40,486 nucleotides of DNA from a virus (lineage: Duplodnaviria; Heunggongvirae; Uroviricota; Caudoviricetes): IMG/VR virus record IMGVR_UViG_2526164661_000012. One strand, 5' to 3'. The first letter of the stretch is position 1. The number at the start of each line of letters is the position of its first letter. Position numbers and translations under genes: made by a program. This document shows positions 20,945-27,818 of the stretch, piece by piece. The notes below the pieces were generated by a model that was given only the letters and a program-made list of their open reading frames with translations, had not been told where the DNA came from and did not search any database.

Positions 20945-21383
20945 ACTGCAGAAGGTGGACGACTGGCTTAGTGCCTTACTGGCGAATCTGGAACCAGTCG
21001 CAAGAAGCCGCATGATGCGCCAGCTGGCGCAGGAACTGCGCCGGACACAGCAGCAGAATATCAGGATGCAGCGCAATCCAGATGGCAGCAGTTATGAACC
21101 GCGCAAGGTCACGGCGCGCAGTAAAAAAGGCCGCATCAAACGTCAGATGTTTGCAAAGCTGCGCACCACCAAATACCTGAAAACCGCCGCCAGCGCCGAC
21201 TCTGCCAGCGTACAGTTTGAAAGTAAGGTGCAGCGCATTGCCCGCGTTCACCATTATGGCCTGCGCGATCGCGTCAGCCGCAAAGGACCGGAAGTGCGTT
21301 ACGCAGAGCGTCGTTTGTTGGGTCTTAATGGTGAGTCTTACGTTCTAACTCTTGATATATTGAATAGATTCCTTCTGTCTTGA
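20937..21383 (+). CDS. S: Tail completion protein gpS-like
   Basis: 148 aa, GTG start overlapping R stop; MAELQKVDDWL... resembles P2 S by recall. Confidence 0.75.
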   Translation: MAELQKVDDWLSALLANLEPVARSRMMRQLAQELRRTQQQNIRMQRNPDGSSYEPRKVTARSKKGRIKRQMFAKLRTTKYLKTAASADSASVQFESKVQRIARVHHYGLRDRVSRKGPEVRYAERRLLGLNGESYVLTLDILNRFLLS

Positions 21384-21843
21384 ATTCACCATATGCCCAA
21401 TGAATTGCATTTTTTTGTTCAGTCAGAATATATTTCCTAACTTTTTTAGAATAGTGAATGGTCAGTATAAAACCCAAAGAAATCCATAATAGAATAAATA
21501 TGGTTGTTGGGGCAAAGGAATAGATAAAGAATTTGTCTTTAACGAAATTCTTGACTTCTTCATCAATGTAAGCATTCCCTTCATCAGTGGTTAGTAGTTT
21601 ACAAAGAATTTCTTTATGCTCGATAGTTAATGATTTGTACTTCTCTGTACTGGCAGAGGATGACTCTTCGCAATCATCCTTTGATATTTCCCAATCAGGA
21701 GTGGTTAATATTGTAGCTGCAGTCGCCAGTTTTTTTGACATATAAAATGATTCACCGGATTTTATCCAATAAAGCAATGTGCTATTTGGTGGGGTTCTAA
21801 TGGCTTGGATGAAAACTGGACCAAAAATATAAATTGCACACAA
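21325..21843 (-). CDS. Hypothetical membrane protein in AT-rich insert between S and V
   Basis: 172-aa ORF (true start may be the internal Met MSKKLATAAT...); one strong hydrophobic helix (FFIYSFAPTTIFILLWISLGFILTI); opposite strand to the late operon. Confidence 0.4.
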   Translation of the reverse strand: MCAIYIFGPVFIQAIRTPPNSTLLYWIKSGESFYMSKKLATAATILTTPDWEISKDDCEESSSASTEKYKSLTIEHKEILCKLLTTDEGNAYIDEEVKNFVKDKFFIYSFAPTTIFILLWISLGFILTIHYSKKVRKYILTEQKNAIHWAYGEFKTEGIYSIYQELERKTHH

Positions 21844-21905
21844 AAAAAGAAGTGAAAAGAGAACCGTGATTGATTTTTCAGCCCATGTGATAGTAGGCAG
21901 CCTTT

Positions 21906-22130
21906 TTAATGATATTCGTATAAGAAAAAATTTAATATAAACGCAGGTATTCCTGATTTTTTCAAAATTACATCATGAGATTTTCTATATTTGAATAGTG
22001 CTCTTATAACTATCGTCACCAAAGTTATAACAGCTCCAATAATGGAAATCCATGCGGCAAGTGCCGCTGCCGGGGTGTTTAAAAATTCAGCATTAAATAT
22101 ATTAGAACTTATTGGATTCATAACACTCAT
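21906..22130 (-). CDS. Hypothetical small membrane protein in AT-rich insert
   Basis: 74-aa ORF with one transmembrane helix (AAALAAWISIIGAVITLVTIVIRALF); same orientation as 21325..21843. Confidence 0.35.
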   Translation of the reverse strand: MSVMNPISSNIFNAEFLNTPAAALAAWISIIGAVITLVTIVIRALFKYRKSHDVILKKSGIPAFILNFFLYEYH

Positions 22131-24063: not shown

Positions 24064-24661
24064 TCTGCTGCCACCAGGTTCAACGCTACTGGAGCGCCGA
24101 CTGGCGCAGACCTGTAGCGGGATTTCTGATCTGCAGGTGCCGCTGCGTGACTTGTGGAATCCGGCAACCTGTCCGGTCAGTTTCCTGCCTTATCTCGCTT
24201 GGGCGTTCTCTGTGGATCGCTGGGACGAGGGCTGGACTGAAAGCGTCAAACGTCAGGTGGTGAAGGATGCTTTTTATATTCATCAGAATAAAGGAACCAC
24301 CAGTGCCGTGCGGCGGGTGGTGGAACCGTTCGGATTCCTGATCCGCATTATTGAGTGGTGGCAGACCGGCGAAACACCGGGCACGTTTCGCCTGGATATC
24401 GGCGTGCAGGATCAGGGCATCACTGAAGATACCTATCTGGAACTTGAGCGACTGATAAGCGATGCCAAACCATGTAGCCGTCACATGATCGGCATGTCCA
24501 TCAATCTGCAGACCAGCGGCCCGCATTGGGTGGGAGCCGCCAGCTATCTTGGCGAAGAAATCACGATCTATCCGTATATCAACGAAACAATTATTTCCGG
24601 CGGCACCGCGCATGAAGGCGGGGCGGTCCATGTTATTGACACAATGAGAGTGAATCCATGA
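24056..24661 (+). CDS. I: Baseplate protein gpI-like
   Basis: 201 aa following J. Confidence 0.85.
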   Translation: MNSLLPPGSTLLERRLAQTCSGISDLQVPLRDLWNPATCPVSFLPYLAWAFSVDRWDEGWTESVKRQVVKDAFYIHQNKGTTSAVRRVVEPFGFLIRIIEWWQTGETPGTFRLDIGVQDQGITEDTYLELERLISDAKPCSRHMIGMSINLQTSGPHWVGAASYLGEEITIYPYINETIISGGTAHEGGAVHVIDTMRVNP

Positions 24662-26049
24662 GCACAAAATTTTATACCCTGCTGACGGATATTGGCGCGG
24701 CGAAACTTGCCAGCGCCGCCGCGCTCGGTGTGCCTTTAAAAATTACCCATATGGCGGTCGGCGATGGCGGCGGAACATTACCAACGCCGGACGCAAAGCA
24801 GACAGCACTGGTAAATGAGAAACGCCGGGCTGCGCTGAATATGCTCTATATCGACCCGCAGAACAGCAGCCAGATTATTGCTGAACAGGTGATCCCTGAA
24901 AACGAGGGCGGTTGGTGGATACGTGAAGTGGGCTTGTTTGATGAGTCCGGGGCATTGATTGCCGTGGGTAACTGCCCGGAAAGCTATAAGCCGCAACTGG
25001 CTGAAGGCAGTGGGCGTACCCAGACCGTGCGCATGGTGCTGATTACCAGCAGTACGGGCAATATCATCCTGAAAATCGACCCTGCTGTAGTGCTGGCAAC
25101 CCGCAAGTATGTGGATGACAAGGCACTGGAGCTGAAGGTGTACGTGGATGACCTGATAGCAAAACATCTTGCCGCACTGGACCCGCATTCACAGTATGCA
25201 CCCAAAGAAAGTCCGACATTTACCGGAACCCCCAAAGCGCCAACGCCAGCGGCGGGGAATAATACCACTCAGCTTGCGACCACCGCATTTGTTCAGGCGG
25301 CACTGACGGCCCTGATTAATGGTGCGCCAGCCACGCTGGACACGCTGAAAGAAATAGCCGCAGCCATTAACAATGACCCGAAATTCAGTACCACCATTAA
25401 CAATGCGCTGGCACTGAAAGCGCCGCTGTCGAGTCCGGCACTCACCGGAACGCCAACAGCCCCCACGGCGGCGCAGTCGGTCAACAATACACAGATTGCC
25501 ACTACGGCTTTTGTGAAATCGGCGATTGCGGCAATGGTGGGTTCTGCACCTGCGGCACTGGATACACTGAACGAACTGGCGGCGGCACTGGGGAATGATC
25601 CGAACTTTGCCACGACAATGCTTAATGCGCTGGCAGGTAAACAACCGCTGGACAATACGCTGACTAATTTGAGTGGAAAGGATGTAGCTGGTCTTCTCAC
25701 ATACCTTGGTTTGGGAGAAGCCAGATATGTCATTCAGCGAGGAGCTAATGTCAATGGTGCATGGATACGCTGGTCAGATGGTGCAATAGAAGTATTTGGA
25801 ACTGGTGGTTCCAATGATAATGGGCTGGCTAAAGTCGTTTATCCAATTGCACTACCTAAGCTTTCACGTTTTATCAGCATAGCGGAAAGAATAAGAACAG
25901 ATTACGAGGCCACACCTAATAACGTTCACGTTTCAATGATCGTGGATGACCAGGTCAGTAATACAGGTTTTTATGTCCGCTGCCAGATGTACGACGGAAG
26001 ACCATCAACAAGTGCTTTTTCCTGGAGAGTTTATTGTGCGCCTGTTTAA
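24658..26049 (+). CDS. H: Tail fibre protein gpH-like; C-terminal ~110 codons lie inside the invertible segment
   Basis: 463 aa; N-terminus MSTKFYTLLTDIGAAKLA...; repeated ...NTQIATTAFV...LDTL.E.AAA..NDP.F.TT..NALA.K.PL blocks; crossover site within the gene at 25694..25719. Confidence 0.85.
   Translation: MSTKFYTLLTDIGAAKLASAAALGVPLKITHMAVGDGGGTLPTPDAKQTALVNEKRRAALNMLYIDPQNSSQIIAEQVIPENEGGWWIREVGLFDESGALIAVGNCPESYKPQLAEGSGRTQTVRMVLITSSTGNIILKIDPAVVLATRKYVDDKALELKVYVDDLIAKHLAALDPHSQYAPKESPTFTGTPKAPTPAAGNNTTQLATTAFVQAALTALINGAPATLDTLKEIAAAINNDPKFSTTINNALALKAPLSSPALTGTPTAPTAAQSVNNTQIATTAFVKSAIAAMVGSAPAALDTLNELAAALGNDPNFATTMLNALAGKQPLDNTLTNLSGKDVAGLLTYLGLGEARYVIQRGANVNGAWIRWSDGAIEVFGTGGSNDNGLAKVVYPIALPKLSRFISIAERIRTDYEATPNNVHVSMIVDDQVSNTGFYVRCQMYDGRPSTSAFSWRVYCAPV
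25694..25719. repeat. DNA-invertase crossover site (left), TTCTCACATACCTTGGTTTGGGAGAA
   Basis: 26-bp site resembling gix/hix/cix half-site consensus (TTnTCnnAAACC); inverted relative to site at 27148..27173; encodes GLGEA in both fibre frames. Confidence 0.55.
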
Positions 26050-26233
26050 TCCTGTTACTTTGACTGAAGTAATCCCCGGTCTTCATGACGTGACCGGGGC
26101 TGTGGAATTACCAGAAGATAACTGGTTTTTTACTGCATCTGAAATCCCTGAAGGAATGGAAATATCTGTTAACGAGAAGGGCGAACCCATTCTGATTGAG
26201 ATTAAACCATCTCAGGTGGAACTGGCCAGATAA
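26036..26233 (+). CDS. Putative short tail-fibre assembly/chaperone protein for the currently expressed fibre
   Basis: 65 aa from GTG overlapping the H stop; position equals P2 G / Mu U; no sequence similarity established. Confidence 0.4.
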   Translation: MRLFNPVTLTEVIPGLHDVTGAVELPEDNWFFTASEIPEGMEISVNEKGEPILIEIKPSQVELAR

Positions 26234-26468
26234 CCCCCGGCGCGGTGCTGGTATCTGCTTCCATCACCGCGTCGATATTACCAACATCATATTCAGTCAT
26301 TTCCGGTTCCGGTGGTGCTATAAACTCTCCGTCAGAATAGAACCAACCGACGCCTGCATCTATATGATCAACATTTATAATTTCGCAATTAGAGAATAAA
26401 TCACCCTCTCCATCCCAGATAATAATATTTTTCACCACGCCATGTTCAATCAGAGCAAAATTACTCAT
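26202..26468 (-). CDS. Tail-fibre assembly protein-like (alternative, inverted orientation)
   Basis: 88 aa ending ...EADTSTAPGVIWPVPPEMV, resembling the conserved Tfa C-terminus (DTSTAPDIEWP); 3' end overlaps the plus-strand tfa convergently. Confidence 0.5.
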   Translation of the reverse strand: MSNFALIEHGVVKNIIIWDGEGDLFSNCEIINVDHIDAGVGWFYSDGEFIAPPEPEMTEYDVGNIDAVMEADTSTAPGVIWPVPPEMV

Positions 26469-27147
26469 CAGGCATACTCCTCAACAATAACTATTCCCGG
26501 GGCACCGTCACCTCCCGATTGAGCCTCACTTCCAGCAGGTGCGCAGGCTCCGCCTCCGCCAGCACCAAAGCCCTCAGCTTTACCACCACCACGTCCTCTG
26601 AATGATGAAGAACTTGCACCACCTATACCGCCTGAACCTAATGGTGTATCCCCCCCGGTACCACCTGCTACAGCTTTAACAGAGATAACCATTGCTCCTG
26701 GTGTTTTTGCACTACAGCGAAATGCTCTTAGTACAGTGCCGGACGATGTCGGACTGGCACCCCATGAAATACCCTGAATATATGATGTGTTTGCAGATGC
26801 TCCCCCCGCGCCACCGCCTGTACCACCAGGTGCAGTTATCATGGAACCGAAATAAGTTGTGCCACCTTCACTACCTGAATTTCTTCCGGCTCCCCCCCTT
26901 TACCTGCAGCACCGATAATAACGTTGACTTCGAAATCATTATCAACCTCGAAAAATGCTTCAATAAATGCGCCGCTCAATCCAGCTCCGGCTGTTGCCTG
27001 CTGATTTTCTGTTGTTTCAGGAACCCCACCGCCGCCGCCGCCACCACCAGAGGCAATGACCCTTATCTTTTTTGTCCCTGGTGTTGGGATATATTTTCCA
27101 GAACTTTTAAAAATATTCGTGTTTAACAAACGACCAGAGAATCTGGC
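26468..27147 (-). pseudogene. Alternative tail-fibre C-terminal cassette (Gly-rich), split by a frameshift in a G7 run
   Basis: Track ORFs 26839..27201 and 26468..26842 are consecutive in different frames; frame at crossover site encodes GLGEA as in H; one extra G in the run (plus-strand C7 at 26892..26898) joins them. Confidence 0.5.
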
Positions 27148-27173
27148 TTCTCCCAAACCAACGTTTATGAAAA
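27148..27173. repeat. DNA-invertase crossover site (right), TTCTCCCAAACCAACGTTTATGAAAA
   Basis: Near-perfect inverted copy of the 25694..25719 site, about 55 bp upstream of the invertase start. Confidence 0.55.
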
Positions 27174-27228
27174 TGCAGAGATAACGGCTAACTGGCATCA
27201 TCCCCGGTTTTTATTCAGGGGATTGATC

Positions 27229-27792
27229 ATGCTTATTGGCTATGTACGCGTGTCAACAAATGACCAGAACACTGATTTGCAACGTAATGCACTGAACTGC
27301 GCGGGATGTGAGCGGATTTTTGAGGACAAAATCAGTGGCACTAAGTCCAACAGACCGGGGCTGAAAAAACTGCTCAGGACACTATCGGCAGGAGACACGC
27401 TGGTTGTCTGGAAGCTGGACAGGTTGGGGCGCAGTATGCGGCATCTTGTTACGTTGATAGAAGAGTTGCGCCAGCGAGGTGTGAATTTCCGAAGCCTGAC
27501 TGACAGTATTGATACCAGTACCCCAATGGGCCGTTTCTTTTTTCATGTCATGGGTGCCCTGGCTGAAATGGAACGCGAACTGATAGTTGAACGTACCAGG
27601 GCGGGGCTTGCTGCAGCTCGCGCCAAAGGCAGAGTAGGTGGACGCCGTCCTAAGTTGACTACCGAACAGTGGGCACAGATTGGACGCTTACTCGAGGCCG
27701 GAGAATCAAGACAGCGTATTGCACTGATTTTTGATGTGGGTGTTTCCACAATTTATAGAAAATTTCCGGCAAATAAGAGTAATGAATCGTAA
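27229..27792 (+). CDS. Serine DNA invertase, Hin/Gin/Pin/Cin family
   Basis: MLIGYVRVSTNDQNTDLQRN...VVWKLDRLGRSMRHL...FFHVMGALAEMERELI..., very close to recalled e14 Pin; track ORF starts at TTG 27223, ATG at 27229 preferred. Confidence 0.9.
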   Translation: MLIGYVRVSTNDQNTDLQRNALNCAGCERIFEDKISGTKSNRPGLKKLLRTLSAGDTLVVWKLDRLGRSMRHLVTLIEELRQRGVNFRSLTDSIDTSTPMGRFFFHVMGALAEMERELIVERTRAGLAAARAKGRVGGRRPKLTTEQWAQIGRLLEAGESRQRIALIFDVGVSTIYRKFPANKSNES

Positions 27793-27818
27793 GCGTCAAC
27801 GGAGCACCGTATTGACGC

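Follow-up and report, generated by a model that had tools for sequence, protein, structure and literature searches.

Organization of the tail fibre locus

We analyzed a 40,486-nucleotide (nt) stretch of DNA, the IMG/VR virus record IMGVR_UViG_2526164661_000012 (hereafter, the window), focusing on the region around the tail fibre gene H, in which a first-pass annotation made from the sequence had described a complete invertible host-range switch. The window matches contig AIGT01000013.1 of the Escherichia coli DEC10E assembly (GCA_000250075.2) at 100% identity, and the element that it carries is a P2-like (Peduoviridae) prophage. As set out below, the tail fibre gene of this prophage very probably contains an inversion switch of the Din family, i.e., of the Pin/Gin/Cin/Hin type.

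H occupies positions 24658-26049 of the plus strand and encodes 463 amino acids (aa). Its C-terminus falls within a segment that measures 1454 bp between the crossover points of two short inverted sites. The segment also encodes, on the minus strand, a Gly-rich alternative C-terminus for the fibre; each of the two C-termini is followed by a small open reading frame (ORF), and the gene of a serine DNA invertase starts 55 nt past the right-hand site (Table 1). Both C-termini were recovered by ORF reading, and a Pin-like invertase does directly follow the segment, as the first-pass annotation had claimed.

Table 1. Features of the tail fibre inversion region and of the adjoining insertion element (positions are those of the window).
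Feature	Position	Strand	Details
Constant N-terminal part of H, ~349 aa	24658-25705	+	outside the segment; Pfam Phage_tail_fib, E = 5.8e-64
Left crossover site, pixL-like, 26 bp	25694-25719		outer half TTCTCACATACC, core TT (25706-25707), inner half GGTTTGGGAGAA
Variable C-terminus of H, now expressed	25706-26049	+	GLGEAR plus 108 aa (114-aa tip)
orf65, 65 aa	26036-26233	+	after the expressed tip; putative tip-specific accessory protein or chaperone
orf88, 88 aa	26202-26468	-	after the silent tip; mini-Tfa-like
Silent Gly-rich alternative C-terminus	26468-27161	-	present as two separate ORFs in the window
Right crossover site, pixR-like, 26 bp	27148-27173		inner half TTCTCCCAAACC, core AA (27160-27161), outer half CGTTTATGAAAA
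Pin/Gin/Cin-family serine DNA invertase, 187 aa	27229-27792	+	Resolvase, E = 2.7e-53; HTH_7, E = 1.4e-15
Predicted recombinational enhancer (Fis-binding)	27247-27318		inside the invertase gene, at its 5' end; homologue of the P1 cin enhancer
IS66-family element, 2540 bp (context only)	27789-30328	-	GTAAGC ends; IS66 Pfam domains

Crossover sites and the reading frames across them

A repeat scan detected an inverted repeat of 33 nt with 88% complementarity, whose arms (25694-25726 and 27141-27173) are separated by a spacer of 1414 nt and include the two 26-bp sites. Reference sites for comparison were taken from annotated records, namely gixL and gixR of phage Mu, cixL and cixR of phage P1 together with their crossover points (NC_005856) and the e14 sites of E. 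coli K-12; the P1 record H94, in which the C segment is split over the record start, was set aside, and NC_005856 was used instead. Aligned on the crossover dinucleotide, the twelve reference half-sites yielded the consensus TTnTCnnAAACC. The half-sites of the window, TTCTCACATACC, TTCTCCCAAACC (present twice) and TTTTCATAAACG, showed 1, 0, 0 and 1 mismatches, respectively, to the specified positions of this consensus, and each 26-bp site as a whole differed by one mismatch from the consensus derived from gix, cix and pix. The resemblance to gix and cix, for which the first-pass annotation had proposed such an alignment as a check, was thereby borne out with the Mu, P1 and e14 sites.

Over all 26 bp, the right site matches e14 pixR exactly (3606-3631 in L003), and it is also found in phage Cartapus and in E. 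coli strain 214-4, while both inner half-sites are identical to the inner half of e14 pix. The left core, TT, and the right core, AA, represent one dinucleotide in inverted orientation, as needed for strand exchange. When the whole window was searched with the degenerate pattern TTNTCNNAAACCNNGGTTTNNGANAA, allowing up to three mismatches, exactly these two sites were found in 40.5 kb, at the same coordinates as in the repeat scan, whereas 100 shuffles gave no matches (0 expected by chance). Because this search found two sites only, the locus is a two-site switch and not a multi-site shufflon, and a system such as Min of p15B or the three-site prophage of enteropathogenic E. coli (EPEC) was ruled out for the window at this threshold.

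At the left site, H is translated as ...TYL-GLGEAR-YVI... (...TYLGLGEARYVI), and at the right site the ORF of the minus strand gives ...INV-GLGEAR-FSG... (...INVGLGEARFSG). Both fibre frames read GLGEAR at this point, in agreement with the GLGEA coding that had been noted across both sites. In silico inversion at the 2-bp cores kept the fusion in frame (...TYLGLGEARFSG... / ...TYLGLGEARFSGRLL...), and the proposal that inversion swaps the C-terminus in frame was confirmed in this way. The 463-aa H and the 580-aa protein with the alternative tip (H', after repair of a G-run described below) both exist as annotated proteins.

The two tips are unrelated in sequence. The expressed tip showed a weak match to Gp53-like_C (E = 0.006, below the Pfam cutoff), and the match between H and phrog_2557 extends through the end of H. 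Unrelated tips are consistent with, but not proof of, a different host range or adsorption specificity, and the two may bind different receptors; the term host-range switch would apply by analogy with Mu, P1 and other phages.

The invertase and its predicted enhancer

The invertase matched the DNA invertase family phrog_125 (E = 1e-100) and aligned over its full length with the crystal structures of Mu Gin (3UJ3 and 4M6F, E = 4e-92). With 187 aa, it falls into the size range of about 185-195 aa that characterizes Din-family recombinases. It is 99.5% identical to the invertase of phage Cartapus, 85% to PinE of e14, 77% to P1 Cin and 73% to Mu Gin. Residues unique to Fis/enhancer-dependent invertases have been described in Hin as K47, K/R48, K/R51, Q151, R154 and L155 (McLean et al., PMC3798978). 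With the offset to Hin numbering fixed via alignment to the Hin DNA-binding domain, Ser9, the catalytic arginines, K46, K47 and R50 of helix B and the Fis patch Q150, R153 and L154 were all found to be kept in the window protein as well as in Gin, Cin and PinE.

An insertion sequence (IS) of the IS66 family sits between the invertase and the tail sheath genes, seven bases before the original stop codon of the invertase, and is bounded by an 8-bp target duplication, AATGAATC (27781-27788 and 30329-30336). It changes the end of the invertase from ...NESP to ...NES, with only Pro188 being lost, and is not found at this position in strain 214-4. In the window, the element's own tnpC gene is interrupted at 28346, where T5 has become T4; the sister contig L021 has an intact copy of 537 aa.

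Gin, Cin, Pin and Hin complement one another. Flipping might thus be performed mainly in trans by another invertase of the host, e.g., e14 PinE, Qin PinQ, Rac PinR or a Mu-like Gin, with the local IS-clipped enzyme being dispensable or inactive. The window sites are indeed identical or near-identical to e14 pix, and PinQ of one cryptic prophage inverts the e14 P segment located in another, i.e., Pin-family enzymes act in trans (PMC12529663). However, what the local enzyme lacks is a single C-terminal Pro beyond the helix-turn-helix domain, every key residue is kept, and an identical 188-aa protein is encoded beside the segment in all relatives examined. We therefore regard flipping mainly in trans as decidedly unlikely and the invertase encoded next to the segment as the putative agent.

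The 5' end of the invertase gene resembles the Cin enhancer, annotated in the P1 record at nt 19-90 of cin: 57 of the 72 positions are identical (79%), compared to 144 of 210 over the next 210 nt. At positions coding for the same amino acid in the window gene, cin, gin and pinE, codon identity reached 55% in the enhancer stretch vs. 41-44% elsewhere (Fisher p about 0.006, for sequence pairs that are not independent of each other). Two candidate Fis cores, 15-mers of the form G-N13-C that lie 49 bp apart, are located at 27250-27264 (gene nt 22-36) and 27299-27313 (nt 71-85); both are common to gin and pinE, while P1 cin has only the one at nt 71-85. Some 97 bp separate the proximal 15-mer from the right site's centre, a distance similar to the ~100 bp between site and enhancer in Hin (PMC3798978). 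Taken as a whole, this stretch is consistent with a Fis-dependent enhancer without being proof of one. A terminator-like hairpin at 27190-27223, between the right site and the invertase start, was also considered and rejected, as it folds no better than shuffles (z = -0.64).

Both orientations occur in closely related genomes

Among complete E. coli genomes, 11 gave a single collinear full-length match to the arrangement present in the window, and 16 a single collinear match to the arrangement flipped in silico, with 95-99.9% identity. In strain 214-4 (NZ_CP025840.1, 1-40146 and 5101295-5138709), both orientations of one locus were found at 99.9% identity. The two ends of this 'complete' record consist of the same ~35 kb, which extends from ybjO over potI, ybjL and the prophage's right-hand portion to the DinI gene, with many frameshifted genes at each end. 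The duplicate represents an untrimmed circular overlap, so that a single DNA preparation yielded two assemblies of one locus, one in each orientation.

Two further comparisons involve near-identical DNA. Strain UC4315, which according to its record is a mutant of UC4224, has the window orientation, and its parent has the flipped one. Moreover, five contigs encode the exact IS66-clipped 187-aa invertase, two of them in the window orientation and three flipped, with the segment otherwise identical except for the G-run. Since the IS66 insertion is a shared derived marker, the presence of both orientations among these contigs indicates that flipping continued after the arrival of the IS. The occurrence of both orientations, named by the first-pass annotation as a point on which the switch could be checked, was thus observed in each of these comparisons.

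Differences in orientation could also arise if the locus were a fossil switch, with remnants only, through rare RecA recombination between the repeats or as assembly artefacts. A segment between repeats can be placed in the wrong orientation by draft or long-read assembly, and the orientation evidence here comes from assemblies. Nevertheless, repeats of 33 nt with 4 mismatches are poor RecA substrates, every junction lies at the sites, and the enzyme, the sites and the enhancer homologue are intact. In addition, orientation repeatedly differed between genomes that are nearly identical, among them a parent and its mutant, and within a single DNA preparation. The same class of switch also flips experimentally, inversion in e14 and in P2-like EPEC prophages having been demonstrated via sequencing and polymerase chain reaction (Goldberg et al., PMC4272514). 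A fossil switch is, in our judgement, extremely unlikely.

The frameshift in the silent cassette

In the window, a minus-strand run of seven G residues (G7, 26892-26898) breaks the frame of the Gly-rich tip, which is left as two ORFs, 26839-27201 and 26468-26842. Compared to the 99.4%-identical prophage of strain 214-4, the sole indel over the fibre and invertase region is one base missing in this run. When G8 was restored, H' comprised 580 aa with a 231-aa Gly-rich tip and was identical to WP_000104767.1 of strain 214-4; the repaired tip gave a full-length, above-cutoff match to Pfam Gly_rich_2 (E = 8e-8).

If the G7 run were real in DEC10E, the switch would be one-armed, with a functional fibre of 463 aa in one state and, in the other, a truncated one of 456 aa that is probably non-functional. 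Most relatives have a G8 run at this point, whereas that of the window is G7. G8 was found in 11 examined copies (eight from complete genomes plus L019, L020 and L021), and G7 recurs in the window's sister L022, of the same lineage, and in OkiPb01677 (L014), of another lineage, i.e., in three assemblies from two lineages. Three copies (L011, L015 and L017) have an interrupted run, GGTGGGGG, that leaves the encoded residues unchanged.

In contrast, all three ORF-breaking indels that distinguish the window from sister sequences are single-base homopolymer under-calls located within 4 kb: G8 to G7 at 26892, T5 to T4 at 28346 (IS66 tnpC) and A7 to A6 at 30810 (tail sheath). This is a signature of sequencing error, and the three frameshifts together suggest homopolymer errors in the DEC10E draft assembly. 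Further, the base in the G-run is the only difference between the window and the sister assembly L019 over 5.6 kb, and the frameshifted product was found on 2 contigs vs. 41 for the exact intact forms. A one-armed switch is accordingly unlikely in our view. The frameshift is most likely a sequencing error, a call that we make because of two things, the homopolymer pattern and the contig frequency; a literature search for the sequencing platform of the DEC10E assembly returned nothing usable. The description of the switch as complete hence stands in so far as all named elements are present, but not for the silent cassette, which is frameshifted in this sequence, probably owing to a homopolymer error.

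The G8 tract might, alternatively, be a true slipped-strand hotspot, in which case a second stochastic layer would be superimposed on inversion, with tip A, tip B and a truncated tip-less fibre as the possible outcomes. This idea draws on the occurrence of G7 in three assemblies and two lineages, and on the runs interrupted without a protein change, as if selected against instability; we consider it highly unlikely.

Proposed mechanism

In the Din-family switch that we favour for DEC10E, the serine invertase encoded to the right of the segment would bind both 26-bp pix-type sites, and host Fis, bound to the enhancer in the 5' end of the invertase gene itself, would join the complex. Both sites would then be cut at the central TT/AA dinucleotide and the strands rotated, with the 1454-bp segment being inverted as a result. 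Din-family inversion characteristically depends on Fis and on negative supercoiling. As neither the late-operon promoter nor codons 1 to ~349 of H are part of the segment, its orientation would select the C-terminal receptor-binding tip. The orientation present in the window would give the 114-aa tip (H of 463 aa), followed by orf65, and the other the 231-aa Gly-rich tip (H' of 580 aa), followed by orf88. A lysogen population would consequently release two kinds of virion.

Several observations weigh against this mechanism. The orientation evidence comes from assemblies of relatives; the invertase is without its last residue owing to the IS66 insertion, and a consensus scan found no sigma-70-like promoter for it on the plus strand. 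Because Pin-family enzymes act in trans, the share of the local enzyme in flipping cannot be isolated. Fis recognizes degenerate sequences, and both candidate cores are pattern matches only. Finally, the silent cassette is frameshifted (G7) here and, if this is real, the flipped state would encode the truncated 456-aa fibre.

Small ORFs downstream of the tips

orf65 and orf88 are convergent and overlap by 32 nt. Neither matched any Pfam or NCBIfam family, Tfa models included, and NCBIfam provided no specific invertase or Tfa name for any part of the switch. orf65 matched phrog_5400, a family of unknown function (E = 4.7e-23), and weakly phrog_188 (tail fibre assembly, E = 0.004); it is kept as a 65-aa protein on about 1000 contigs and showed no similarity to the Tfa of Cartapus. 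orf88 has only a C-terminal tail, DTSTAP..WP..PE, in common with the Cartapus Tfa (11/20 identical, E = 6e-5), and some members of its cluster bear the name 'tail fiber assembly protein'.

The first-pass annotation had called both genes Tfa-like. For orf65, where position was all that spoke for it, this label was unsupported, while for orf88 it found weak backing in the 20-residue Tfa C-terminal motif. Position and conservation suggest that the two are tip-specific accessory proteins, for which a chaperone role may be envisaged.

Prophage context and neighbouring cargo

The gene order of the prophage is of the P2 type. Integrase, CI and CII genes are found at the left of the window, followed by the portal, terminase, capsid and lysis genes and by V-W-J-I-H. 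The switch is positioned at the end of the baseplate and fibre operon. To its right are the sheath, tube, tape measure, D and ogr genes and then the ybjL/ybjM side of the chromosome. No tRNA genes were found in the 40.5 kb of the window. The tail sheath gene FI (30486-31657) is split, in comparison to strain 214-4, into ORFs of 112 and 278 aa by the A7-to-A6 change at 30810.

Three regions of the window have no alignable counterpart in the 214-4 prophage. The first, at 21325-22130, lies between V and the genes for tail completion and encodes, on the minus strand, a DUF6216 protein of 172 aa plus a hydrophobic ORF of 74 aa; P2 carries its orf30 moron at this position. The second (10320-13087) includes a 176-aa ORF of unknown function (10535-11065, minus strand) and a 360-aa ORF with a weak Peptidase_M48 match (11783-12865). 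In the third (1143-2797), three ORFs, all unknown, separate the integrase gene from that of the CI repressor.

Significance of the switch

The locus provides a clean, fully parsed Pin-type tail fibre switch in a P2-like prophage of a strain from the O26 lineage of E. coli that produce Shiga toxin (STEC). Annotation pipelines label its parts 'phage tail protein', 'hypothetical protein' and 'recombinase family protein', and both the silent cassette and the sites could be annotated. Assemblies may show either or both orientations, which matters for comparative genomics and quality control. As an inverted e14 fibre can block adsorption of phage T2 (PMC12529663), prophage switches may also affect the phage sensitivity of their host. 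The compact cassettes, which encode accessory proteins of 65 and 88 aa and are common to e14-like and P2-like elements, represent a small lead for minimal tail fibre chaperones and for the engineering of phage or tailocin host range.

Comparison with known inversion systems

Tail fibre inversion switches of this kind have been known since the 1980s. The one described here works like Mu G/Gin, P1 C/Cin and e14 P/Pin, and adds little new to a well-known mechanism.

Salmonella Hin/hix shares the enzyme family and has the Fis/enhancer control that is predicted for the window, with a similar site-enhancer distance. However, Hin flips a promoter and its gene lies inside the segment, whereas in the window a coding tip is swapped and the invertase lies outside. 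Among the P2-like prophages of EPEC E2348/69, one has three sites and four variants, compared to the two sites of the window.

The Mu and P1 systems resemble that of the window in mechanism and architecture, with 26-bp sites of the half-site TTnTCnnAAACC and alternative S/S' tips; their enhancer at the 5' end of the invertase gene has a predicted counterpart in the window. In addition, Mu and P1 have U/U' chaperones, Gin and Cin being 73% and 77% identical, respectively, to the window invertase. The core of gix is TC in Mu, in contrast to TT in the window. Further, the G and C segments measure 3.0 and 4.2 kb, with long tips and chaperones of about 175 aa, whereas the window segment is compact (1.45 kb).

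The P2-like phage Cartapus has the same backbone, V-W-J-I-H ... invertase ... FI, with 99.5% identity in the invertase and an identical right site, but its cassette pair is different, with Tfa proteins of 139 and 131 aa. No phage record in the collection carried the cassette pair of the window at a coverage of at least 80%.

The P segment of e14 in K-12 (stfP-tfaP / tfaE-stfE), served by PinE, shares with the window the right site and the inner half-sites, which are identical, the TT core and 85% of the invertase residues. The layout is also shared, i.e., a constant fibre part, a segment with two tail-to-tail cassettes of tip and accessory gene, and then the invertase; the tfa gene pairs of both e14 and Cartapus converge and overlap, like orf65 and orf88. 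Nevertheless, e14 is a lambdoid remnant with a segment of 1797 bp, while the window carries a P2-like myovirus prophage with a segment of 1454 bp. Similarly, the Tfa proteins of e14 are full-length (137 and 200 aa), compared to the accessory ORFs of 65 and 88 aa, and its tips differ from the Gp53-like_C-like and Gly_rich_2 tips found here.

An e14-like element in ECE228 (NZ_CP196312.1, 2632900-2637870; ymfQ-stfP ... pinE) was found to carry the same cassette pair as the window between pix sites, at 94.7% identity, which shows that lambdoid e14-type and P2-type elements have these cassettes in common. By sequence comparison, then, the closest relative of the switch is e14 Pin as regards sites and enzyme, and phage Cartapus as regards the backbone in which it is embedded.

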